Shown one piece after another: positions 8,964-50,995 of a DNA stretch of 64,000 nt. The DNA is taken from the sequence record MT129652.1; one strand, given 5' to 3'. The DNA is from Escherichia phage MN01. Below the pieces are notes generated by a model. It saw only the letters and a list, made by a program, of their open reading frames with translations, did not search any database and was not told the DNA's origin. The number at the start of each line of letters is the position of its first letter. The stretch's first letter is position 1. A program made the translations under genes and the position numbers.

Positions 8964-10387
8964 AAACTATTTTATCCCAGCTACTCTTTAACAAGGAATA
9001 TTTTGTTAAAGTCTGGCCATATCTGAATAACACATATTTTGAAAAGGGTCCAGCGAAGACCCTTTTCAATACGATTAACGAACACGTAAAAGAATATCAA
9101 GCGGTACCAACTAAGACTGCACTTGATATCGCGCTCGACAGCTCTGACCTTTCTGAAGTCGAATATGAAGGCACAAAGAAACTCTTAGGAGTCCTGGCCG
9201 ATACTCCAGAAGACCAGGAATGGTTGGTTAAAGAAACCGAGAAGTATGTACAGAAGTCTGCGATGTTCAATGCCACATCCAGGATTATCGAAATTCAGAG
9301 CAATGCCGAACTTCCGAAAGATAAACGTGATAAACGAATCCCGGATATTGGTGCTATCCCTGATATCATGCGGGATGCATTATCTATCTGTTTTGACTCT
9401 GCCCTGGGCCATGACTGGTTAAACGATTACGAAGCTCGATTCCAGACTTATCTGAACAAATCGAAAAAGGTTCCGTTTCGCATTAACATCCTGAATAAAA
9501 TCACGAAGGGTGGAGTTGAGTATGGTACAGAGAACGTTTTACTGGCCGGGACAAACGTCGGGAAATCTCTAGGACTTTGTTCATTAGCCGCTGACTATCT
9601 TCAGACTGGTCATAATGTGCTTTATATAAGCATGGAAATGGCTGAAGAAGTATGTGCCAAACGTATTGATGCCAACTTGCTGGATGTGTCTCTGGATGAT
9701 ATTGATGAAGGTCATATATCATGGGCGGAATATAAAGCTAAGATGGAAAAATGGCGTGCTTCCGGGACTCTTGGGACTCTGAAGATAAAACAATATCCAA
9801 CTGGTGGTGCTCATGCGGATACCTTCCGCGCATTGCTGAATGAATACAAACTGAAGCAGGGGTTTGTACCGGATGTGATTATTGTTGACTACCTGGCAAT
9901 CTGCGCAAGCTCAAGACTGAAAACGTTTACCGAAAATAGTTACGGTCTGATTAAGATGGTTGCAGAAGAACTTCGTGGTCTGGCAGTCGAGAAAAATGTG
10001 GTTCTATGGACCGCGGCGCAGACAACCAGGGGCGCGAACGTTGCAGCTGAGATTGATATGGCTGATATCGCAGAATCCTTTGGTATTGCTCACACGGCTG
10101 ACTTTATGTTGGGTGTTGTTGAGACCGAAGAATTCGCTCAAATGGGGCTGCAGTTAATCAAACAGCTTAAGTCTCGTTATGGCGATAAGAACTACTATAA
10201 TAAATTCAAGATGGGCGTTAAGAAAGGCAATCAGCGCTGGTATGAGGTTGATGATGATTCGGCTCCTAAACAAGGCCCTACGGTTAAAGAAGCCACCGGT
10301 GAGATGAATCGCCAGGCTGAAATGAATAGACAAACCAGGGTCAACAGGAGCGACCTGGACGACCTCGCTGCTCAAATGAAATTTTAA
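8957..10387 (+). CDS. 41: replicative DNA helicase gp41 (DnaB-like)
   Basis: Matches recalled T4 gp41 from MVExILS; Walker A GTNVGKS; GTG start chosen at 8957, track start 8948. Confidence 0.92.
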   Translation: MVETILSQLLFNKEYFVKVWPYLNNTYFEKGPAKTLFNTINEHVKEYQAVPTKTALDIALDSSDLSEVEYEGTKKLLGVLADTPEDQEWLVKETEKYVQKSAMFNATSRIIEIQSNAELPKDKRDKRIPDIGAIPDIMRDALSICFDSALGHDWLNDYEARFQTYLNKSKKVPFRINILNKITKGGVEYGTENVLLAGTNVGKSLGLCSLAADYLQTGHNVLYISMEMAEEVCAKRIDANLLDVSLDDIDEGHISWAEYKAKMEKWRASGTLGTLKIKQYPTGGAHADTFRALLNEYKLKQGFVPDVIIVDYLAICASSRLKTFTENSYGLIKMVAEELRGLAVEKNVVLWTAAQTTRGANVAAEIDMADIAESFGIAHTADFMLGVVETEEFAQMGLQLIKQLKSRYGDKNYYNKFKMGVKKGNQRWYEVDDDSAPKQGPTVKEATGEMNRQAEMNRQTRVNRSDLDDLAAQMKF

Positions 10388-40033: not shown

Positions 40034-40309
40034 ATGACTAAATTTGAAATCGTTTCTGAAATTGTTACTGTAACTTCAATTTTGATTAAAACCGACCGGG
40101 AAGATATTACGATGAAGCGTGATGTATTTATCGCGTTTTTGAATGAGTTGGGATTGAGAAATGAGAATGGGAATGAGTTAAACAATGTATCGTTTAACAA
40201 GTTGTTTAAAAGTTTATCTGAAGATGAAATTGAACAAATTATTGAACAATTTAACGAAGGATTCGAAGATATACACCGTTATCTTATGATGTATACCTCC
40301 GGATTCTAA
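40034..40309 (+). CDS. asiA: anti-sigma70 factor AsiA
   Basis: 91 aa; IxTVxSILIK and FNEGFEDxxRYLxMYT match recalled T4 AsiA. Confidence 0.85.
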   Translation: MTKFEIVSEIVTVTSILIKTDREDITMKRDVFIAFLNELGLRNENGNELNNVSFNKLFKSLSEDEIEQIIEQFNEGFEDIHRYLMMYTSGF

Positions 40310-40959
40310 CGTGTACGCCCAAGCGTACGACCTGCTTGTCCACACATAGCAGAAAGCCTATCAAAACCAAGGTTAGGTTTTTGCTTATACCAGTACAGTG
40401 AGACTGTGCCTGCATAAACGTTTTCCAAATTAAAGAACGGGCAGCTGAACATATATGCGAAGCTGCTTTTTTTCTTTGTTGGTAAGAATACAGATTCCGT
40501 ACTGGATTCAAAATAATTACCATTAACCCCCGCCAAATATTCCGCCGAAGTTTTATCTATTGGAAACCCACCTAAATTTTTTTCGTCGACTGTATCAGGC
40601 AATATCCCCTCGTATCCCACCATATCCACAAAGTAGTTAAGGTTAGTTGGTCTAAAAGAATATATTGCTGTAAAGTCTGCCCCACTTGACGAGTGGACTA
40701 TCTGGATTTGCTCGATAGCTGCAATTTTAAATCTGTTATCCTGGTCTTGCCTTATCATTTCAGTGTATGAGGCATATGAAGCATCCCTGTACGCATCTAA
40801 AAGTGCATCACCTTTATACCAGATTACCGCCATTAAAAATAATAGAACAATAACTAGTACCCGGGAAAAAACAACTTTCCCGGTCGCATTATCTTTAAAA
40901 ATTCTATCAAGAAGTCCAAAAAGTAGGTCGGGTATTGATATTCCTACTTTTGGTTCCAT
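40306..40959 (-). CDS. t: holin T
   Basis: 217 aa (T4 T 218); LLFGxLDRxFKDNATGKV and FVDxxxYEGxLP match recalled T4 holin; TATAAATA upstream. Confidence 0.9.
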   Translation of the reverse strand: MEPKVGISIPDLLFGLLDRIFKDNATGKVVFSRVLVIVLLFLMAVIWYKGDALLDAYRDASYASYTEMIRQDQDNRFKIAAIEQIQIVHSSSGADFTAIYSFRPTNLNYFVDMVGYEGILPDTVDEKNLGGFPIDKTSAEYLAGVNGNYFESSTESVFLPTKKKSSFAYMFSCPFFNLENVYAGTVSLYWYKQKPNLGFDRLSAMCGQAGRTLGRTR

Positions 40960-40977
40960 ACTTTTCTCCTTTAAAGA

Positions 40978-40985
40978 TATTTATA
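40978..40985 (-). promoter_or_regulatory. late promoter (TATAAATA) for holin gene t
   Basis: Minus-strand TATAAATA about 20 bp upstream of t start; SD AGGAG follows. Confidence 0.5.
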
Positions 40986-40996
40986 GCGCTTATGTA

Positions 40997-41779
40997 CTAT
41001 AGCCAGGAGCCGTAGATAGTGCCTGTAGCGCCCCATGAAGGAGAACTTCCGAATACAGCTCGTCCAGCTCCGCCTTGTGAGCCGTATGTAACGCTTCGTC
41101 CGTAAGCACCGCCACCAGCCCCGCCCGCATCGCCACCATTACCACCACCCCACTGTCCGCCAAAGCTACCACCGCCACCTGGGCCTGTATAACTAGCGTT
41201 GCCACCTGGGTTTACGGCACCATTAGTACCACCTAATCCATATGGTCTACCGCCACCGCCACCGGCAGTACCAGCTTCAAGCCAAGAGTTATTTGAAGCG
41301 CATCCGGCACCACCGCCACCACCTGAAGCTATAACGCCATAGTTCCAGATACGGAGTCTGCCTCCAATGTCGTTTTGAATTACATCACCGCCATTTGTAC
41401 CTGCTATCCAAACACGGGTCCCACCATTACCACCGCGTCCCCACATATGAACCCCACCATGAATATTCAAAGTAACATATTCATTAGGAGTATCACCGTA
41501 CATAAAGAACAATGGAACATCTTTAGTATAAGATACTAAATCACCTGTGATATTAAACACAATAGGGGCAGCACCGGCTTCAAAACAACGGTCTCTAAAC
41601 CATTGCCCGTTAAAGTTATGGTCGGCTCCAAGCGTGTGAATTACTTCAACAGATCGACCTATCATATTACTCATCCAAAATGGAACACCCATTCTTAATC
41701 TTACGGCTGCTCCTGCCATCCAAGGGTCTCCAGTTTGTACCCTTGCAGACCATCCTACCCACGGTCCTTCAACTGCCAT
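40997..41779 (-). CDS. 38: tail fibre adhesin gp38 (T2-type, glycine-rich motifs)
   Basis: About 260 aa from ATG at 41779 with SD GGAGG (track start 41791 is TTG); poly-Gly motifs between variable segments. Confidence 0.8.
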
Positions 41780-41791
41780 ATAAACCTCCAA

Positions 41792-41805
41792 GGGGCCGAA
41801 GCCCC
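41792..41805 (-). other. intercistronic CUUCGG hairpin between genes 37 and 38
   Basis: Minus strand GGGGC-ttcg-GCCCC immediately 5-prime of gp38 SD GGAGG. Confidence 0.5.
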
Positions 41806-41810
41806 TCTTA

Positions 41811-44800
41811 TTATTTTAACAATGATTTAACTAAAGATTTAAGTTCTTCAATCTCTGATTTCAATTCTGCTATTTCAGCAGTATGCTCATTGATTGCAGC
41901 TGTATTTAAACCAATTACACCGTTATAGTTCAAACGAAGTAAAGCTTCACCATCAGGGTCACCTTCAACCAATTCAGGTAAAATAGCTTGAACTTCTTGG
42001 GCAATTAAACCAGCATTAGGTTCCCATTTCTGATTACCTTCCTCATCTAGGCCTCGCTTCTGCATATAAGTGTAACCGTTAATTTTAGAAAGCTTCTGAG
42101 AAGCATTTTCAAATTTAACAAGGTCCTTTTTAACACGAATATCAGAGCGGACATAAACATCTCGAACATATGTAGAATAGGCATCACTTTGTTGGACTAA
42201 ATGACCGAAAGAAATAATAGCTCGTCCTGTTTCGGTCCACAAAGCACCGGTGGTATCCCAAAGACCTTCATGGATATGGTAAGAGCTAGACCATGAAGCA
42301 ATATGAACACCATTGGCAACCATATTGATTCGGCCGTCACCACCATGAACTAATCCGGTATCATTATCACCAATAACAAGACACGGGCCTGTCCATACAG
42401 GGTCACCACCACCAGCTGATAATCTTGCTCCAGTTTGAACCATGTTAGGAACATACAAAACTCCGTTATGATGGAATTCATATATAGCTTGTGGGTCGGA
42501 ACCGTTTTCCTGGTTACCTACACGAATAATACCTTGCGCCCAGTTATTAGTAATGCGTCGCATACCAAAATCAACACCTGATATGAATCCTTCACCAGTA
42601 ATACCTGATTTTCCTTTGATAATAGGATAATAACTATCATTACCAACATTACCAAAATCCACAAATACCGGTGCTTCTTGCTTCCATTGATTACCAAAAC
42701 CACCACCTTGGTGAGCCGTCCAGACAGAGCCATTAATAAAAAGCCGGTCCCTATTAAAATTAAAAGTGGCTGAACCTTGTGGGTTTAAAGCAATATCACC
42801 ACCTGCATTAATATTAACACCCGAATTAGTTTGAAAACTATAAAATGATATAGCATTATCAGCACCACCGTTACCTACATACCAGTTATCAATACCAGCT
42901 TTTTGTCCTTTCAAATAACCAGATTCGGTTGCAGCACTGTTAATAACAATAGCATCCGAGTTTACATTCAGAGTTAAACGGCCGGTCATTGTATCGCCGC
43001 CTTTACCAACACGAGTATTCACCGCCGCGTCAAGGTTAGTAGCACCGCTATACTTGTTCCAAATAGAACCTGCAATATTACCATCAGTATTCATGAAAGC
43101 TGTACCGGCATATAAGCGGTTCTGAGCCATGAAGTTACCTTCTTTGGTAAAGCGCCAATATTTTAATCCTGTAGCATCACCATCACCAAGCAAATCACCT
43201 TGAGCAACAATTCGGTATTCGCTCGTAGCTCGGTCCATACCTTGAGTAACGGTTATATTCGAATCGATATTTTTCTGCTTAGTAATAGGATAAAATGCTT
43301 GAGTTGCAGCATCGAGCGTTTGATACACCAGAGCTTTAGTCGTGTTCTGGTTGGCATAAGATGCACCGTTACTATTAGGGAATTCCAATGCACCATTACC
43401 CCTAAAATAAACCTGGTCTGCTTCTAAGTTAGGGATTTTAACACGACCAGTGTCTAACATAATACTTAATGGGCGTAATGGGCCTAATCCGCCACTTTCG
43501 CCGGCATTAACATTGGTCGGGATAATATGCAGCTGGTCTTCCGAATTTCGAAAAATAACACCGTACTTGTCGTTCCAAATACGAAGTCCACTAGCAGCGC
43601 GAACTTTAATTTCATTGGAAACATACAGATTGCGTTTTAAGGATGTATCTTGATTGACAGTCAATCCTTCAATTACATTCATGGTACCATTTAAATAGGA
43701 TTCGACTTTACCTGCTGTAGTTCGTTGAATATAATGCATCCAGCCGGTAGCATCAGATGTTTCCATTACGTTTTTACGGTCGCCATCGACACTAGTAAAG
43801 GTATTACCCCAAACGCTGATAGTCATATTATCAACTGAACTACTTCCTGTTGTATTTCCTTTAAAAAGCACTGTCGAAGCAGTACTGAGACCATCAATAT
43901 TAACCGAACCACCACGGACTTCAACGTTACCAGGAGTAACCAACAACCCACCATCGGTGTTAACGTTTGTTACACCTTTGCCACGAAAATAATGGTGATA
44001 TTTGCCGCTTTGGTGATAACCTAAAAGAGTTTGACCGTCGCCGAAGCCGTTTTTATCATTAGTAGTATTAACAATAACTAATGGATAGTTTTGAGTTGTA
44101 GGAAGAATTAAATCAGAACCGTTGGTTGAATAACCCGCAACTAACTGTTTAAGGCTTGTAACTTCAGTTGGAGTTGTAAGTAAAGTATAAGCTCCATTAT
44201 TAACTGTATGGAACTGGCCATCTTGCTTCCATTTCAAACCTGTGTTATTGTCGCCAAGTGCGATAGCAGACGGACCTAATGTTGAGTATCCTGAGCTATC
44301 CCCAGGTAGGCCAACGGAAAGAGAATTTGATGTTTTGACATCGCCATCTGCATTAAATGACCAAAGATACTTAGCTGTTCCGGCTGTAGAAATAGAATGC
44401 CATGAAATACCATTTACATTATTAAGTTCACGATACCTAATTCCATCGACAGCGTGTCTACTTATTCTAAGATAGTTAATAGCTGTTGCGCTTGAACTTG
44501 CAGGATTATTATTTGCTAATGAAGATATATCATAATCAAGAGCTGATTTATTACCAGTATCAACGGTATTAGTATAAATTACTGGAGATTTCACCGATGT
44601 TCCGCTGGAAATAGACGGAGCATAAAATAAACCGTCACCGTTGAATGCAAAAATATTAGATGTTGAATTAGTATAATCCTGGACACGAACGTTCAAGATT
44701 TGCTTGGTAGTTCCTGGGCGTGATTGTGAATAAATTATGCCTCTTTCACGTGCATCAGCCAAATCCTGGAATCGAACGTGGGTGGTTCCTGTACCCCGTA

Positions 44801-45137
44801 CAAGAACTTCACCGTTATCTGTCATTAGGCGAGATTTTGCTGTGATATCACCATTTGCTGTTACACTTCCGGATGTCGCATAACTACCTGTTTGGGTAAA
44901 AGTACCATTCAGGGCATAATCACCGGTCTGATTGTAATTTCCTTTATGAATAACATTACCATCGATATTACCACCTTTAGCAAAGCCAAGGTCGATAATA
45001 GCTCCAGTGTCGTCTTTAGTAAAAAGTAAGCGGTCTTTCAGGTTGATAGCCAGTTCACCTTCAGCAAGAACTGTTGGCGCCGGACGAACGCCGGCAACCT
45101 TACTTCTTTTAAATTGTATTTGTTTTAAAGTAGCCAT
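41811..45137 (-). CDS. 37: long tail fibre distal subunit gp37 with C-terminal intramolecular chaperone-like domain
   Basis: 1108 aa; N-terminus [13 protein letters not shown] matches T4 gp37; C-terminal about 120 aa resembles self-cleaving chaperone domains. Confidence 0.88.
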
Positions 45138-45145
45138 AATGCCTC

Positions 45146-45793
45146 TTAATAATATCCAAAATCTTGTACGGAGTCTTTAAGAACGATTTGGTCAAAACGA
45201 GGCACATGGGCCGGGTCTGATGCTGGGTTCCTAGAGAAGAAATTAGGTGCTGACAAGTTACCTGTCATTGTTTGCAATGTACTATTATTTAGTTCCACTT
45301 GTTGTTGGTTGGTTACATTACCAAGACCGACTTGAGCTTTTGATGGAGTGTTCCCTGGAGAAAATACACGACCTGTTTCATCATAAATGTGACGAGCTAA
45401 CGTATCACCCATAACAGTAAGACGTTTTGCTCCTGTCGTAGTGTCAGGGTCAAAAATAACAAATGGTGTTCCTGTTTCAGTCTCAAATCCAAACGGTCCT
45501 TTAATACGGAAAGATGCTGTAAATGGTGCTCCACCTGTTCTCGCTCCCAACTTAATCCCGTAACCATTTGAATCGTTAAATGTCAGGCCTTGTTCGAAAT
45601 ACACATTTGCTTTATAATTACCACCCAGAGCTTTAGAAACAAAATCGTTATCGACTGCTTGTGGCTTGTTATATTCGGAATAAATTTTATAAGTTTTGAA
45701 ATATAAGTCATTGCTGACTGGTGTTAATGGGAAATTACCCTGGTGCCAGAGGACCGAACCTCCGGCTGTTGAGCCTAGTTTTAAATCTGCCAT
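45146..45793 (-). CDS. 36: long tail fibre hinge/distal connector gp36
   Basis: 215 aa (T4 gp36 221), between 35 and 37; TATAAATA upstream. Confidence 0.7.
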   Translation of the reverse strand: MADLKLGSTAGGSVLWHQGNFPLTPVSNDLYFKTYKIYSEYNKPQAVDNDFVSKALGGNYKANVYFEQGLTFNDSNGYGIKLGARTGGAPFTASFRIKGPFGFETETGTPFVIFDPDTTTGAKRLTVMGDTLARHIYDETGRVFSPGNTPSKAQVGLGNVTNQQQVELNNSTLQTMTGNLSAPNFFSRNPASDPAHVPRFDQIVLKDSVQDFGYY

Positions 45794-45828
45794 TTATAAG
45801 TCCTCTTCAACCGGCATATGATATTTTG

Positions 45829-45836
45829 TATTTATA
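45829..45836 (-). promoter_or_regulatory. late promoter (TATAAATA) for gene 36-37-38 transcript
   Basis: Minus-strand TATAAATA between gene 35 terminator and gene 36 start. Confidence 0.5.
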
Positions 45837-45840
45837 ACGA

Positions 45841-45862
45841 AAAAAGGACTCCGAAGAGTCCT
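45841..45862 (-). terminator. rho-independent terminator after gene 35 (minus strand)
   Basis: On minus strand AGGACTC-ttcg-GAGTCCT followed by TTTTT; overlaps gene 35 stop. Confidence 0.6.
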
Positions 45863-46991
45863 ATTGTTTTTCTCGTAGTTCGGCTGCGTATATCTTGCCG
45901 GCTCTCGGAGCTTGTGCATCTGGGAATGTTACAATTGTATTACCTGTATTTGTTGCATCGTTTGCATATGACATCCTTATGCCGTTGACACCAAATTCAG
46001 CTGGTTTGAATGCCGAGTCGCCTCTGGTTATCTCACCAATAACAATATTACGTATTGACCCTGTTCCAGTAGCTACAGTTCTTGATGTTACTACCGTAAA
46101 GCCATCAGCTCCCGCTGGAATCTCGACATATCTTTCGAAACTCGCCCAAGCCCCGGCTGGAACGTTTGCTGCAATATCGATGTTTGTATTTGATATTGGA
46201 GCAGTGCTAGGGCTTTTAAAGAATCGAACCGAAGTCCTTACAGTTCCGGCGGCTTTCAGTTCTGCGTCAAATGACATCTGAAACTTCAAGTAAAGCACAT
46301 CCAAAGGTAAAAGGTTATAGGTATCCATAGGAGTCACCAGGTCCTCTGTGGGAAACCTTTTAATTGTGGTTGGTGTTCCATCACCTGTTGATGAATACGT
46401 GCTCTCGTCTTCCGTTATGCGCACAGGATAGCCTGTTGCCCCTATATCACTAAAGGTATCATAAACGACTTCAAGCGGAGTCGAAACATCCTCAACTAAC
46501 TTCCCGTCATTATACTTAACATGCTCCGAAACAATTACGTTCCTGCCGGTTATGTAAAAAGCCGAGTACGATGTATCAACTTTATCAATCAACCATTTCT
46601 CTGGGAATGCTCTTGAACCACATTTACGGAACCAGTCAATTAATGTCTGTGATGCATTTAGTTTCCCAGAAGAAATAAAAGCAATCAATCTTCCAGCTGG
46701 TACAGATTCCACAAAGGTGATTAATGCCTGACTGATTACATCGTGTGAGCTAGTTAATGAATAGTTTTTTGTGTTAACAATTTTATTCGTAGTTGTATCA
46801 ATTTCTAATAGAGTCAAACCATTACCAAAAGTAGTTGGTCCGATTCGTTCATCCTGGAATTTGATATACGATTTCACCGTGGAAAGAGTACAGCTCCCTG
46901 CTATACTCATTTTAAATTTAACGGCATTATTTTCTGATATAACTGGCGTTTGGACATATCCTTGTCCAAACTCTGCCATAAATTTTTCCAT
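45861..46991 (-). CDS. 35: long tail fibre hinge gp35
   Basis: 376 aa (T4 gp35 372), between 34 and 36. Confidence 0.7.
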   Translation of the reverse strand: MEKFMAEFGQGYVQTPVISENNAVKFKMSIAGSCTLSTVKSYIKFQDERIGPTTFGNGLTLLEIDTTTNKIVNTKNYSLTSSHDVISQALITFVESVPAGRLIAFISSGKLNASQTLIDWFRKCGSRAFPEKWLIDKVDTSYSAFYITGRNVIVSEHVKYNDGKLVEDVSTPLEVVYDTFSDIGATGYPVRITEDESTYSSTGDGTPTTIKRFPTEDLVTPMDTYNLLPLDVLYLKFQMSFDAELKAAGTVRTSVRFFKSPSTAPISNTNIDIAANVPAGAWASFERYVEIPAGADGFTVVTSRTVATGTGSIRNIVIGEITRGDSAFKPAEFGVNGIRMSYANDATNTGNTIVTFPDAQAPRAGKIYAAELREKQ

Positions 46992-46999
46992 ATTACCTC

Positions 47000-49900
47000 T
47001 TATTCAATCCATTCAAACTTAACGGATTTAGTGGTCGGGTCTGGGATGATACGTACGTTACCGATACGTAACCAATCGAGAATGGTTAAGTTCCCCATCG
47101 TTGTGTTGTCAGCCGGTAATGCACCAACATCCTCTGCAGACGGAGGGTTATCCGCGGTGTAAACCATTGCGAAAGTCGTCCATGCGGATTTATTTTTCTG
47201 CCATGTACGAGTATAACGAATAGTACCACCGTTCAATCCAGTTGGATAGCAAACCCAATCTTGATAACATGAATCCAGCGTATTACCAAACTGAGTCAAT
47301 GTACCAGGATATTTAATTTGTTTGTCACGAACTGAATAGTCAAACCATGTTCCGCGTAGTTTCTGTCCAGAGCTACCTAATACTTCATCACCAAGTGTAC
47401 CATCATCATTACGATAACGAATAGCAGGCGAGGCGAAAGTTCCGTTTTCAGTTAACCAACCAGAAGCATTCCAAACTTCATCAGTTACCCCAGCAGGTTT
47501 AGTTTGAACCGTATCAATGTTTACTTGACGTTTTAACTTCATTGTCCAATAACCAGGGAACTGGCTATAAGTCGCTTCATCATTGATATCGACAGACCAG
47601 AAGCCAACAGTATCAGCAGTCGGAGCTTGTGCAATAAGACTCGGTTTCGTACCAAATACACGGACCGGAGCATTCACACGGAGTACACCAGACATTGTAT
47701 CACCAGCCTGGTTAACAAAGTTTCTATCAACAATTTCTACTGCGTTTTTCTCGGTCAGAACTTTAAATGCACCGCCACCATTTGCTATGATATTGCCAGC
47801 ATCAAGAGTTTTGAGCACTAAATTCTGTGAGTTATCACCCAGAGACAAAGTTGCGCCAGAAGCTTCACCTGTTGTGGTTGCAATAGTACGACCATTTAGA
47901 ACGTAATTATTTTTGGCTTGAACATCGTTTCCGGCGCTGAGGTTGTTCAATACAGCAACATTACCCGAGGCGGTGTTTAATGTCAATACGTTAGTCGTAT
48001 CGCCGATAGTCATTGTCGTTCCAGTGGAAGGAGCAGTGATTTTCCACTTGTTAGTTCCGTTAACAACATTCACAGTCCCGAACGTCGAAGTGCCAGCCGT
48101 TACATCAGTAAACACTGCAGTGCTCGTCGATACAACCGGAGCAGAGATATTTGTCTGTTTAGTGAGAGTTAATGCACCTTCAACAGTCTGGGCAATATCA
48201 CGACGAATAAATTGGGTCGAATCGAGACTATCAAGTTTTTCAGCATTAACAGCCATCGCATTTATCGGTAAGAAGTTTTGCAATACGCGGTTTAATTCGT
48301 AAGGCGAAACTGCATATCCAGATTTTGCATAGCTAACCAGTTTACTTGGGTCCGGAGTATACACACCATTTGCATATGTAAATCCTGCACCTGTCGTTGT
48401 AGTTGCGGCCGAAGTAGCTGCACCAGAAGATAAACGAACAAATCCTCGCAGTGTTTCAGATGATTCCCAGGTGGTTTCCGTTTGTGCAATATATTTCAGC
48501 GCAGACGGACTAATGGCCAAGACTTTTGATGTACCAGCGGTTGCTTCGGCGTTTGTCGCAATGCGAACAATACCTTCGGCATTTTCAGTAGCTTTTTTCG
48601 ACATCAATTTAAGCGGGGTAACGATTGTTTTATCGTCAGTGCCGGTATTGACTTCGCCCTGAGTTGCTAATCTTGCTGTACCACGTTGAGTCTCATTTGC
48701 TTCAAGAATATTCAGGCTATAATGGTCCCAGAGCGTCCCTGTTTCTACTAAACCACTTAATGCATTAACAGAAGTACGAGCAGTATTATTAAATCTATTT
48801 TTAATTTTTAATGGAGTTGAGATACGAGTATCATCAGTTCCAGTATCAAATTCTGATTGCGTAGCAATCTCGGCTATGCCGGATAATGTTTCTGATGCTT
48901 TACGGTCATTTAACGTTTTAGGAGTTACAGCTCTGGTATAATCAGTTCCTGCATTTGTTTCCGCCTGAGTAGCAATCTCGATTAAACCAATACGGGAATC
49001 AAGAGCAGTTTTGCGATGCAACATTTCTGGAGTAACGACTGCGTTTGCCCAGTCAGATTGAGAAGTACCGGCGATTACTTCACTTTCAACCGCAAGAATA
49101 ACCGCGCCTTGCTGAGTGTAAGTAGCTTTGTACTGGTCAAGAGCTTTCGGAGAAACAACCAGATTAACCGTATTTTTATTATAAACGTTTGTACCATTTA
49201 ATTCACGCGAAGCAGCAGGAGTTGCACCAGTCGTTGAAACGTAAGTTACAATGCCGGATAGCGATTCTGAACCCTGACGAGCTTGCAGTTTCTTTGGAGT
49301 TATAATTGTGGTATCATCTACACCTGCATCAGTTTCTTGCTGTGTGGCGAGTTCTGCGAGCCCACGTCTCGTTTCTGTTGCCGTACGTTCATTGAGTTTT
49401 TTCGGAGAAATAATTACATCATCAACAAATGCAAAATCACTGTTCTGATTTACTTGGGCAGTCGTTGCGATTCTGGCAATGCCTCGTTGGTTCTCTTTAG
49501 CAACACGGTTGGCTAAAGTCTGAGGGGTAATTGCGAGTTCTTTCTCTGGGTTATTTTCATGGTCAACGTTTGCCTGAGTCTGGTTTGCCAGAGCAATAAC
49601 ACCAAGACGTGCACGCGTGGAATCATTTAATGAGTCAACTCGTTCGACAGTCGGAACGTTCTGAGCGACAACCCAATAACTTTTTCCAGATACTTTATCT
49701 TCTGCATATGACAATTCAATAACCGGAGTATAACTGATATTACCGTTAAAGGTCAATGAATCAACCAACACCCAAGTTGTATCCGGTGGATACTCGGAAC
49801 GTTTAGGGAATTGCAGTAATTTAATGTCAGATGCAATCTTATCGCCAACAGCAGCTCTTATATTAACAGTCTGTGATTTACGGAGATAGTTCAGTGCAAT

Positions 49901-50956
49901 CTTAACGATGTCACCTTGTAAAACATCAGTTGGTAAATCGATATTAATCGTTGCCGGAGTTGAGTTATCTTCGCCAAATACAATGATGCTTTCGTTTGGT
50001 AAAAGTTTAACACTATCGCGAATAATACGCAGACGAGTTTTATTATCACCGTCCCAGACATGCCAGAGTTTTTCTGCAGCATTATAAACGAAGAAACCAT
50101 CACCTGTGGTACGGAATTCCATTTGATGCTGACCAGCTTTACCAAGACTGGAACTGGTGTCAAAGGTTTCAACCATCAGGTGGAACGTTGGCCCCATGCC
50201 ATCGATATCAACAGATTTGACAATATCACCCTGGTTTGCATACTTAGGAAGAATGAAAGTAATCGGTGCACCAGTTGTATAACGACGCATAATAAAGTCG
50301 CCAGCTTGTGCATGGAAACGTCCGGTCGACGGTTCTATTCTGATACCACGTTCTTCGTTACCTGCTTCCCAAAATTGCCATAAGCGGTTTGAAAAGATAA
50401 GCATGTTATAAGAGAACGGTTTGGTAATTAAAACTTCTGAATACTGATTACCAAAGCGAACAATCTTTTGGTTACCTGCCCCTGGTACGTTGCTTGACTG
50501 GATTTTAATTTCATTATAACCAACGTTCCCACCAATATCTTTAATAACGATGGTATCGCCGTCAACCGGGTTTGCAGGCAATGTAAATGTGGTAAAGCTT
50601 GCAGCTGAGTCGACTGCGATAAATTCCCCCGAGTTAAGCTGACGGGTTGGAGATGCAACAGTTTCCCATTTAGGGTCAGTACGAGTTGCCAACCAATACT
50701 GAGGCGTAAATGCTCCAGCAGGGGCCGGAATATCACGTTGAGCAACCCAAATACGGTTATCATTAATAACTGCAAAGTTCTTTTTGTATCCGCGTGTTGC
50801 ATCATATTGTTGAACTGTGTTTTCTTCTATAAAGAAACCTACGTTAACGCCGTCTGATAAAACTGAGTAATCAGCTTTTGCGACATTAATGACTTTCTCA
50901 CCAGCAGCATCGAGACCGGATGTTGCTCTGAATGCTGGTTTTAAAATATCGGCCAT
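47000..50956 (-). CDS. 34: long tail fibre proximal subunit gp34
   Basis: 1318 aa; N-terminus (GLDAxGxKxINVA, IxENTVQQYDxTRGY) matches recalled T4 gp34; internal repeats. Confidence 0.88.
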   Translation of the reverse strand: MADILKPAFRATSGLDAAGEKVINVAKADYSVLSDGVNVGFFIEENTVQQYDATRGYKKNFAVINDNRIWVAQRDIPAPAGAFTPQYWLATRTDPKWETVASPTRQLNSGEFIAVDSAASFTTFTLPANPVDGDTIVIKDIGGNVGYNEIKIQSSNVPGAGNQKIVRFGNQYSEVLITKPFSYNMLIFSNRLWQFWEAGNEERGIRIEPSTGRFHAQAGDFIMRRYTTGAPITFILPKYANQGDIVKSVDIDGMGPTFHLMVETFDTSSSLGKAGQHQMEFRTTGDGFFVYNAAEKLWHVWDGDNKTRLRIIRDSVKLLPNESIIVFGEDNSTPATINIDLPTDVLQGDIVKIALNYLRKSQTVNIRAAVGDKIASDIKLLQFPKRSEYPPDTTWVLVDSLTFNGNISYTPVIELSYAEDKVSGKSYWVVAQNVPTVERVDSLNDSTRARLGVIALANQTQANVDHENNPEKELAITPQTLANRVAKENQRGIARIATTAQVNQNSDFAFVDDVIISPKKLNERTATETRRGLAELATQQETDAGVDDTTIITPKKLQARQGSESLSGIVTYVSTTGATPAASRELNGTNVYNKNTVNLVVSPKALDQYKATYTQQGAVILAVESEVIAGTSQSDWANAVVTPEMLHRKTALDSRIGLIEIATQAETNAGTDYTRAVTPKTLNDRKASETLSGIAEIATQSEFDTGTDDTRISTPLKIKNRFNNTARTSVNALSGLVETGTLWDHYSLNILEANETQRGTARLATQGEVNTGTDDKTIVTPLKLMSKKATENAEGIVRIATNAEATAGTSKVLAISPSALKYIAQTETTWESSETLRGFVRLSSGAATSAATTTTGAGFTYANGVYTPDPSKLVSYAKSGYAVSPYELNRVLQNFLPINAMAVNAEKLDSLDSTQFIRRDIAQTVEGALTLTKQTNISAPVVSTSTAVFTDVTAGTSTFGTVNVVNGTNKWKITAPSTGTTMTIGDTTNVLTLNTASGNVAVLNNLSAGNDVQAKNNYVLNGRTIATTTGEASGATLSLGDNSQNLVLKTLDAGNIIANGGGAFKVLTEKNAVEIVDRNFVNQAGDTMSGVLRVNAPVRVFGTKPSLIAQAPTADTVGFWSVDINDEATYSQFPGYWTMKLKRQVNIDTVQTKPAGVTDEVWNASGWLTENGTFASPAIRYRNDDGTLGDEVLGSSGQKLRGTWFDYSVRDKQIKYPGTLTQFGNTLDSCYQDWVCYPTGLNGGTIRYTRTWQKNKSAWTTFAMVYTADNPPSAEDVGALPADNTTMGNLTILDWLRIGNVRIIPDPTTKSVKFEWIE

Positions 50957-50987: not shown

Positions 50988-50995
50988 TATTTATA
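50988..50995 (-). promoter_or_regulatory. late promoter (TATAAATA) for gene 34-35
   Basis: Minus-strand TATAAATA about 32 bp upstream of gene 34 ATG. Confidence 0.5.

Follow-up and report, generated by a model that had tools for sequence, protein, structure and literature searches.

The gp37-gp38 locus of Escherichia phage MN01: a very probable adhesin-capped long tail fibre of the T2/S16 type

The adhesin architecture built from the long tail fibre proteins gp37 and gp38 has been studied by genetics since the 1980s and in structure since 2018; T6 has Tsx as its receptor, T2 has FadL and OmpF, and S16 binds the OmpC of Salmonella. T4 has genes of the same names in the same genomic position as the locus described here; its gp38 is an unrelated chaperone and its gp37 bears its own receptor-binding tip. 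In T2 and T6, the adhesin system of the Henning laboratory, gp37 is cleaved and then capped by gp38 (PMC3157838). In S16 (PDB 6F45; Dunne et al. 2018) the cleavage site and autocleavage of gp37 have been described, with release of a 113-aa intramolecular chaperone (IMC) (PMC7917993), and gp38 docks by means of three tryptophan prongs (PMC6851490). In PP01, loops D and E of gp38 contact the OmpC of O157, with loop E being the specificity determinant (PMC12892980).

The DNA analysed here, which we refer to as the window, is a stretch of 64,000 nucleotides from Escherichia phage MN01 (MT129652.1), for which we computed family membership, domain boundaries, motifs, the fold of gp38, its variable segments and start codon, and the mosaic ancestry of the locus (Table 1). 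The order of genes, from the ORF map and Pfam, is g34-g35-g36-g37-g38-t, with g37 directly upstream of g38 and the holin gene t, recognised by a Pfam Phage_holin_T match, downstream. The original prediction had located the module exactly, the gp38 stop codon lying at 40997-40999 and the gp37 ATG starting from 45137, on the minus strand. We hold with high confidence that this locus is the receptor-recognising distal end of a long tail fibre of the T2/S16 type in a JS98-like T-even coliphage, in which gp37 would cleave itself and be capped by a gp38 whose loops set host range. The architecture is already known and the locus adds no new kind; the practical gain is the annotation of the two MN01 proteins, both of which are labelled 'hypothetical protein' in GenBank, and of mislabelled relatives. 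By sequence comparison, its nearest relatives are S16 and the JS98-like phages, T2 being more distant.

Table 1. Features of the gp37-gp38 locus, in window coordinates
Feature	Position	Strand	Description	Basis
Predicted mature gp37	42147..45137	minus	aa 1-997, each chain about 107 kDa; shaft of the distal half-fibre, with a predicted trimeric beta-structure	ORF map, PHROG, Pfam
gp37 distal tip	42147..42383	minus	aa 919-997; predicted gp38 docking surface	alignment to S16 gp37 tip in 6F45_A
gp37 putative IMC/autoprotease domain	41814..42146	minus	aa 998-1108, 111 aa, 12.3 kDa	Pfam PF13884, 6F45_A homology
gp38 N-terminal attachment domain	41660..41779	minus	aa 1-40; W7/W20/W35	Gp38_N match
gp38 predicted beta-helix and polyglycine-II sandwich	41000..41647	minus	aa 45-260	Pfam GP38, AF2 model, Foldseek
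gp38 variable segment 1	41393..41419	minus	aa 121-129, TRVWIAGTN	entropy profile, 80 sequences
gp38 variable segment 2	41264..41305	minus	aa 159-172	entropy profile, 80 sequences
gp38 variable segment 3	41180..41227	minus	aa 185-200	entropy profile, 80 sequences
gp38 variable segment 4	41141..41170	minus	aa 204-213	entropy profile, 80 sequences
gp38 variable segment 5	41075..41107	minus	aa 225-235; counterpart of PP01 loop E	entropy profile, 80 sequences
Shine-Dalgarno of gene 38	41785..41789	minus	GGAGG, 5 nt upstream of ATG	read from sequence
Intercistronic RNA hairpin	41790..41807	minus	GAGGGGC-UUCG-GCCCCUU	between gp37 stop (TAATAA) and gp38 ribosome-binding site
T4-type late promoter motif	45829..45836	minus	TATAAATA	motif upstream of gene 36

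gp37 and its C-terminal domain

The gp37 gene occupies 41811-45137 on the minus strand in the ORF map and encodes a product of 1108 aa and 119 kDa before cleavage, compared with 749 aa in S16. The protein matches PHROG 1699 ('long tail fiber protein distal subunit') with an E value of 0 and contains the Pfam domains Gp34_trimer (aa 450-559) and gp37_trimer (aa 730-779), and the gene is about 93% identical in nucleotides to gp37 of vB_EcoM_RZ (RZ). At its extreme C-terminus lies a match to Peptidase_S74 (PF13884) that spans residues 998-1057 (E 2e-12; score 47.6 bits, cutoff 22) and places the first position of the profile on S998. The endosialidase and tailspike chaperones of this family (Schulz et al. 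2010) likewise sit C-terminally after a trimeric fibre and have an N-terminal serine followed by a lysine at +5. Homology to S74 members outside the T-even phages is distant: when the domain alone was compared with the PDB by sequence, it found S16 gp37 (6F45_A, 2e-32) and otherwise only the MYRF autoprocessing domain 7DC3 (E 0.03) and the tail-fibre chain 8JOV (E 0.1).

The boundary of the domain reads VYVR/SDIRVK, where the slash marks the boundary itself, so that a serine nucleophile (S998) stands at the boundary and a lysine (K1003) at +5. The pattern V-Y-x-R-S-D-x-R-x-K is invariant in seven phages (MN01, P8, RZ, JS98, LHE83, T2 and T6) and the cleavage motif is found in Bp7 too; the T2/T6 form, VYIR/SD.RLK, is the same motif, and S16 has S/SDRRIKK where the window has R/SDIRVKK. 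By analogy, the scissile bond of gp37 is predicted to be R997/S998, and the Ser-Lys pair to consist of S998 and K1003. The original prediction had likened the last 120 aa or so of gp37 to a self-cleaving chaperone domain, and this likeness is borne out by an S74 domain that is homologous to that of S16 and by the conserved motif, although the domain measures 111 aa and not about 120.

The domain could instead be a degenerate relic that stays uncleaved on the fibre, with gp38 attached differently or loosely, and the Pfam score, at 47.6 bits, is indeed moderate. We regard this as very improbable. The serine, the lysine at +5 and the VYxR stretch are invariant in all phages compared, despite a divergence of 23-59% between this region and those of JS98, LHE83, T2 and T6, and conservation extends to the docking tryptophans in gp38. 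The 2e-32 match is, moreover, to an S16 domain whose autocleavage is documented (PMC7917993).

In the mechanism that we propose for an active domain, g36, g37 and g38 would be co-transcribed late. The gp37 product would trimerise, and its C-terminal S74 domain, 111 aa long, would act as the nucleus from which the trimeric beta-structure folds. The domain would then cut itself off at R997/S998, S998 acting as nucleophile and K1003 as base, and cleavage would leave a flat trimeric gp37 tip ending in DVYVR.

The predicted tip belongs to a recognisable type. Residues 919-1108 of gp37 match S16 gp37 (6F45_A) at 1.7e-43 in a sequence search of the PDB, and the tip is 97% identical to that of RZ and 87% to that of P8, which are of the same type, whereas the JS98 tip is only 24% identical. 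An HxH motif at 954-956 falls inside a 12-aa stretch of the window tip that the S16 tip lacks.

gp38: family, fold and ancestry

The 260-aa, 26.3-kDa product of g38 belongs to the Pfam families GP38 (PF05268, 7e-80, 268.4 bits) and Gp38_N (PF21721, 3e-19, 69 bits), each with a cutoff of 25, and to PHROG 2056 ('tail fiber protein; host specificity', 4e-103). [quoted passage not shown] Of the solved structures, 9V85 is the closest to the window's specificity domain.

These matches bear directly on whether the locus is instead of the T4 type, with gp38 acting only as an assembly chaperone outside the virion while gp37 itself supplies the receptor-binding tip at its C-terminus. Public records could be read that way, as orthologues in JS98, JS10, RB69 and IME281 are labelled 'distal long tail fiber assembly catalyst'; this wording was carried over from T4 annotation, is wrong for these relatives and is no evidence of function. 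The window gp38 matches adhesin families and structures only, with no tail-fibre assembly chaperone family in Pfam or PHROG at E<=0.01; gp37 finds no T4 gp37 needle or tip in the PDB at E<=0.01, only S16 gp37; and the C-terminus of gp37 is formed by a domain of the self-cleaving S74 family, which T4 gp37 is not known to have. A T4-type arrangement is thus scarcely credible, and the original assignment to the T2/T6 architecture rather than that of T4 holds. In the Dhakavirus LHE83, anti-gp38 serum blocks adsorption (PMC10987938). Against the adhesin-capped fibre, the sequence itself holds no argument.

The N-terminal attachment domain contains three tryptophans, of which W7 is invariant and W20 and W35 are at least 90% conserved in an 80-sequence alignment. 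By analogy with S16, T2, T6 and PP01, gp37 would be cleaved, gp38 would be part of the virion at a 3:1 stoichiometry of gp37 to gp38, and binding would be mediated by loops: one gp38 monomer would dock on the gp37 tip through its helical N-terminal domain, inserting W7, W20 and W35 into three symmetry-related pockets, the Gly-rich motifs of its C-terminal half would fold into a polyglycine-II sandwich, and five variable loops at the far end would bind an outer-membrane receptor and so set host range.

In the AF2 model of gp38 (pLDDT 84.9) the predicted fold is a beta-helix with a polyglycine-II sandwich. Foldseek aligned this model to 9V85 with an E value of 8e-26, an rmsd of 1.4 A, a TM score of 0.93 normalised to the target and 64% identity over 218 columns, and to 6F45_D at 1.7e-20 with TM scores of 0.77-0.81, and returned no other match at E<1. 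The N-terminal 45 residues have pLDDT values of 39-66, which is expected because the docking domain was modelled without its partner. Residues 110-260 are 36% glycine, compared with 12% for residues 1-109, and include runs of GGGGG at 153-157 and 173-177 and of GGGG at 201-204; this Gly-rich half accounts for a local spike in GC content to 0.544, where the flanks stand at about 0.40. An entropy profile of the 80-sequence alignment, a comparison with homologues that the original prediction had suggested, shows that the Gly motifs are invariant and delimits five variable segments between them. The variability is densest at residues 122-127, 161-171, 186-192, 204-213 and 225-234. Its description of gp38 as an adhesin-type protein with poly-Gly motifs parting variable segments is therefore upheld by Pfam, the PDB, the model and the entropy profile together.

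S16 and the window share the two-gene gp37-gp38 architecture, and their gp38 proteins are 49% identical over the full length, with the same short N-terminal type (MAVxGPWVG, without a 2-aa insertion), the three tryptophans and the order of Gly motifs and loops in common, but all five loop sequences differ. T2 and T6 agree with the window in gene order and in how Gly motifs and variable segments are arranged; gp38 identity to the window is 60% for T6 and only 46% for T2, and here too the loops differ.

The closest comparisons indicate that the window gp38 was assembled from two sources. Its residues 1-48 are 100% identical to those of MN04 and 52% identical to the JS98-type cluster, whereas past residue 48 there are only 3 aa differences from JS98 gp38 (AAU29224). 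The window gp38 is a natural chimera in which two modules, both already known, are joined. Its specificity loops are JS98-type, its variable segments being 98% identical to those of the representative of the JS98 90% cluster (P8, PhAPEC2, TH40 and TH44), and a single lineage block, RZ/P8/MN04-like, takes in the tip and chaperone domain of gp37 together with the N-terminal docking domain of gp38. The chimera is another case in which a specificity domain can be transferred only if the docking domain beside it fits the gp37 tip, whether that docking domain moves along or is already in place. Across nine phages, the type of the gp37 tip co-varies with that of the gp38 N-terminus (Spearman 0.56), which fits the experimental finding that T2 gp37 is incompatible with the PP01 gp38 N-terminus (PMC12892980). 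The boundaries defined here (the predicted R997/S998 cleavage, docking by aa 1-40 and the five loops) may aid the host-range engineering of JS98-like therapeutic phages.

Receptor and host range

To place the loops, the five segments were compared with those of T6 (Tsx), M1 and AV119/FL08/wV7 (OmpA), Ac3/BF15, the MN04/UGJNEcP4 type, the PSD2001 type, LHE83 (OmpA), T2 and S16. Bp7, a member of the MN04/UGJNEcP4 loop type, has been reported to use LamB/OmpC, and the PSD2001 loop type resembles that of the OmpC binder PP01. Apart from the JS98 cluster and RZ, which is closely related, no type among 79 homologues is more than 42% identical to the window loops, and assignment of a receptor by loop similarity was rejected because no loop set exceeds this value. 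Nor is the OmpC specificity of PP01 transferable, since its loops D and E (NTGTGYYAGG and YANPGAGYSTPP) are not conserved in the window gp38, where the counterpart of loop D is SFGGQWGGG. A literature search for the receptors of JS98-like or Dhakavirus adhesins and of P8, MN01 and MN04 yielded only that of LHE83, which is OmpA and goes with another loop set, and none assigned by experiment to the JS98-type loops. Our best guess for the window gp38 is an outer-membrane beta-barrel protein. A more adventurous reading, which we consider improbable, is that JS98-type loops recognise a receptor other than those already known for gp38 adhesins (OmpA, OmpC, OmpF, Tsx, FadL and LamB), or else an epitope that is conserved in both E. 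coli and Yersinia enterocolitica and allows adsorption across genera. The points behind it are the low identity of the loops to other types and the 97.7% identical adhesin of P8, a phage isolated on Y. enterocolitica.

Host range might also be set jointly by the gp38 tip and the gp37 shaft, for example through lateral LPS contact or a second receptor, which would add to the adhesin-capped fibre model rather than replace it. The gp37 shaft is strongly mosaic, with blocks of P8-like, RZ-like and JS98-like ancestry alternating along it, and this suggests diversifying exchange beyond gp38, although neutral recombination between co-infecting relatives would give a mosaic shaft as well. Also in favour of a joint contribution are exchanges of gp37 between the JS98-like phages WG01 and QL01, which reportedly changed host range (Chen et al. 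2017, AEM), and the contrast between P8, from Y. enterocolitica, and the related MN04, which shares the gp38 N-terminus of the window and is recorded on enterotoxigenic E. coli. In the absence of its receptor, OmpA, LHE83 retains about 50% adsorption (PMC10987938). Against it, Pfam and PDB sequence searches detected no binding domain in the shaft. We consider a joint contribution unlikely overall and prefer gp38 loops as the determinants of host range.

Transcription and the start of gene 38

A T4-type late promoter motif, TATAAATA, precedes gene 36, and no further motif of this type was seen between g36, g37 and g38. From what is known of T4 late promoters, TATAAATA is probably the start of a g36-g37-g38 transcript. 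A scan for sigma-70 promoters found 18, against 16.6 expected in shuffled sequence, and hence no excess; such promoters are of no matter for late genes. Plus-strand ORFs within gp37 and gp38 were taken as spurious because the full-length family matches sit in minus-strand frames.

The original prediction had also noted an ambiguity between TTG and ATG starts for gp38, which is real in ORF calling but resolves to the ATG at 41779. Position 1 of the Gp38_N profile in Pfam falls on the methionine of this codon, and gp38 begins at the equivalent ATG in the records of P8, JS98, T2, LHE83 and Bp7. The TTG at 41791 was rejected as a start on these grounds and because it (41789-41791) lies within the stem of the intercistronic hairpin and overlaps the Shine-Dalgarno sequence, with which it shares its G. 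An Rfam scan of 40200-46000 gave no family match at E<=1; folded alone, the hairpin has a free energy of -13 kcal/mol. The hairpins of relatives were compared by folding each sequence separately, because the MAFFT alignment was out of structural register, and an equivalent hairpin with another stem sequence occupies the same position in P8, JS98, LHE83, T2 and T6.

The gp38 adhesin and the C-terminal domain of gp37

The gp37/gp38 observation is confirmed, and its interpretation as an adhesin together with a self-cleaving chaperone is supported. The limits given in the original prediction are exact, one falling on the stop of g38 and the other on the start of g37, and of its T2-type reading the adhesin/chaperone architecture stands, but the nearest relatives are of the JS98/S16 type and not T2. 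The system is the textbook one and its exact proteins are already public: an exact-sequence look-up returned both as GenBank QIN95617.1 and QIN95618.1 (Escherichia phage MN01), each labelled 'hypothetical protein'. The label 'distal long tail fiber assembly catalyst' persists on orthologues in JS98, JS10, RB69, IME281 and Bp7; this T4-derived label is wrong for an adhesin-type gp38.

The proposal that gp38 is an adhesin with glycine motifs between variable segments is borne out by family matches, structure and alignment. The protein matches Pfam GP38 (7e-80) and Gp38_N (3e-19) and the PHROGs entry 'tail fiber protein; host specificity' (4e-103). In sequence searches S16 gp38, from the gp37–gp38 tip structure 6F45, was matched along the whole gp38 length (5.5e-48); the other solved adhesin matched was 9V85 (3.7e-75), confirmed as the PP01 gp38 receptor-binding domain (PMC12892980). 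An AlphaFold2 model from an alignment of 80 homologues has a mean pLDDT of 84.9, and confidence drops only over the first 45 residues, the part normally seated on gp37. Overlaid on 9V85, the model gives 1.4 A and a target-normalised TM of 0.93; on 6F45_D the TM is 0.77–0.81, and a structure search of the PDB with the model returned only 9V85 and 6F45_D chains below E=1. Glycine makes up 36% of residues 110–260 as against 12% upstream of 110, and this Gly-rich C-terminal half causes the GC spike at 41000–41499. The proposed alignment check, run on the 80 homologues, delimited five variable segments of maximal entropy (122–127, 161–171, 186–192, 204–213 and 225–234) between invariant Gly runs, the alternation of Gly-rich motifs with hypervariable segments that is classical for such adhesins (PMC3157838); the five have their counterparts in the S16 structure, as its five distal loops (PMC6851490). 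In the same alignment W7 is invariant and W20 and W35 are at least 90% conserved, and the equivalent three Trp 'prongs' dock S16 gp38 onto the gp37 trimer (PMC6851490).

At the other end of the pair, Pfam Peptidase_S74 ('chaperone of endosialidase') matches gp37 residues 998–1057 from profile position 1 (2e-12; 47.6 bits, cutoff 22 bits), and the S16 gp37 construct of 6F45 is matched by residues 919–1108 (1.7e-43) and by the last 111 residues alone (2e-32), which also give a hit at E 0.03 to the autoprocessing domain of eukaryotic MYRF (7DC3). The predicted chaperone-like domain is therefore present, at 111 aa and not about 120. Its boundary falls between residue 997 and S998, followed by DIRVK1003 KD. 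The motif V-Y-x-R-S-D-x-R-x-K does not vary among the window, P8, RZ, JS98, LHE83, T2 and T6, and the R/SD.R.K boundary is also present in Bp7; over the whole C-terminal region the window is only 23–59% identical to JS98, LHE83, T2 and T6. Autocleavage of S16 gp37 at DLNVS/SDRRIKK frees a 113-aa chaperone, exposing the gp38 docking surface (PMC7917993), and according to Trojet et al. the gp37 C-terminus of T2 and T6 is cleaved proteolytically before gp38 caps the fibre (PMC3157838). By analogy we infer autocleavage of gp37 in MN01; the mature chain is predicted at 106.9 kDa and the domain set free at 12.3 kDa. An HxH motif (SYHIHEG, residues 954–956) is found in the gp37 tip, in a 12-aa stretch that RZ and P8 have but the S16 tip lacks. 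In T4, HxH motifs of the gp37 needle coordinate metal ions on its axis.

Gene order, start codon and expression signals

The pair lies in a T-even long-tail-fibre operon, in a window whose backbone is 95–97% identical to the JS98-like phages pEC-M719-6WT.2, ECML-359, vB_YenM_P8 and vB_EcoM_RZ.

Features of the long-tail-fibre region of MN01, all on the minus strand
Feature	Coordinates	Evidence or position
g34	47000-50956	ORF map
g35	45861-46991	ORF map
g36	45146-45793	ORF map
g37, 1108 aa	41811-45137	ORF map
g37 tip	42147-42383
HxH motif	42270-42278	in g37 tip
g38 as TTG ORF	40997-41791	ORF map
t (holin)	40306-40959	ORF map; Pfam Phage_holin_T (last gene)
Late-promoter motif	50988-50995	directly upstream of g34
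Late-promoter motif	45829-45836	upstream of g36
Late-promoter motif	40978-40985	directly upstream of t
UUCG-loop hairpin AGGACTC-TTCG-GAGTCCT with T-run	45845-45862	after g35 stop
GC-rich UUCG-tetraloop hairpin, -13 kcal/mol	41790-41807	between g37 stop and g38 Shine-Dalgarno

A TTG versus ATG ambiguity had been noted for the gp38 start; it is present in the ORF list and is resolved to the ATG at 41779. The sequence 3' of the g37 stop reads TAATAA GAGGGGC TTCG GCCCCTT GGAGG TTTAT ATG, in which both T's of the mechanical ORF's TTG (41791–41789) belong to the hairpin 3' arm and its G to the Shine-Dalgarno GGAGG, with the ATG 5 nt downstream of the latter. The Met at this ATG aligns with Gp38_N profile position 1, and the equivalent ATG is the annotated start in the P8, JS98, T2, LHE83 and Bp7 records; spacing, profile and homologues together therefore give a gp38 of 260 aa. 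In the T6 record AP018814 (13711–14508 of the T6 stretch compared) gp38 is annotated from the equivalent TTG, four codons 5' of the conserved ATG (MEKIMAVVG...), which is the same artefact.

The T4-type late-promoter motif TATAAATA occurs upstream of g34, g36 and t. Its count in the whole window, 7 against a shuffled expectation of 4.3, is not above it, and the positions alone are suggestive. A minus-strand scan found no such motif between g36, g37 and g38, which makes co-transcription of g38 with g36-g37 probable. Within 45829–45862, the g36 motif comes immediately after the hairpin and T-run that follow g35, which look like a terminator. The g37-g38 hairpin matched no Rfam family; P8, JS98, LHE83, T2 and T6 have an equivalent in the same place with other stem sequences, so its position and structure are conserved and its sequence is not. 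Possible roles are RNA stabilisation or an adjustment of g38 translation. C(UUCG)G hairpins are reportedly a long-known feature of T4 intercistronic regions (Tuerk et al. 1988).

Receptor and mosaic ancestry

The adhesins nearest to gp38 are those of P8 (97.7%), TH44 (96.9%), EAWsc9 (95%) and JS98 (89.7%), for which a literature search found no published receptor. Among dhakaviruses a receptor has been mapped for LHE83 alone, namely OmpA (PMC10987938), but its gp38 has a different loop set and 65% overall identity. OmpC specificity cannot be carried over from PP01, as loops D and E, which contact OmpC in PP01, are not conserved. For the JS98-type loop set an outer-membrane beta-barrel protein is, by analogy, the reasonable expectation.

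A sliding comparison across g36-t with P8, RZ, JS98 and LHE83 revealed that gp37 alternates among P8-like, RZ-like and JS98-like blocks, its shaft (150-nt windows) being in turn about 97–100% identical to P8, to RZ or, at a lower level, to JS98; the breakpoints lie near 44000, 43700, 43050 and 42450. In the holin gene, as in the 3' portion of g38, the window is nearly identical to JS98 and P8. The modules of gp38 differ in history. Residues 1–48 are 100% identical to MN04, 94% to the wV7/AV119 type and only 52% to the JS98-type cluster (JS98, P8, PhAPEC2, TH40 and TH44); in the variable segments identity is 98% to that cluster and at most 42% to every other loop type except RZ, a close relative (78%) whose deposited C-terminus is apparently frameshifted.

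The gp37 tip tracks the gp38 N-terminus rather than the loops (Spearman 0.56 over 9 phages, with pairs that are not independent). One tip type is common to the window, RZ and P8 (84–97% among themselves) and another to JS98, LHE83 and Bp7 (83–91%), with only 18–26% identity between the groups. In keeping with this, PP01 gp38 was found to function on T2 gp37 only once its N-terminal 113 residues are swapped for those of T2 (PMC12892980). It follows that gp37 tip, chaperone domain and gp38 N-terminus, the docking pair, pass on together, with separate exchange of the specificity domain, a modular shuffling already known for these genes.

Some public records were irregular. The deposited C-termini of gp38 in Bp7 (9159–9950 of the Bp7 stretch compared) and vB_EcoM_RZ turn unrelated after about residue 210–225, past the Gly-rich region, and look like frameshifts or join errors; the vB_EcoM_RZ gene spans the record origin. 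Outside the window, a 303-aa NCBI 'tail fiber domain-containing protein [Escherichia coli]' is a chimeric ORF, in which the N-terminal domain and beta-helix of a T6-like gp38, through to the first long Gly run, are followed in frame by a gp37-like tip with VYIR/SDRRLK and a complete S74 chaperone domain; either genuine recombination via Gly-coding repeats or an assembly artefact could account for it.
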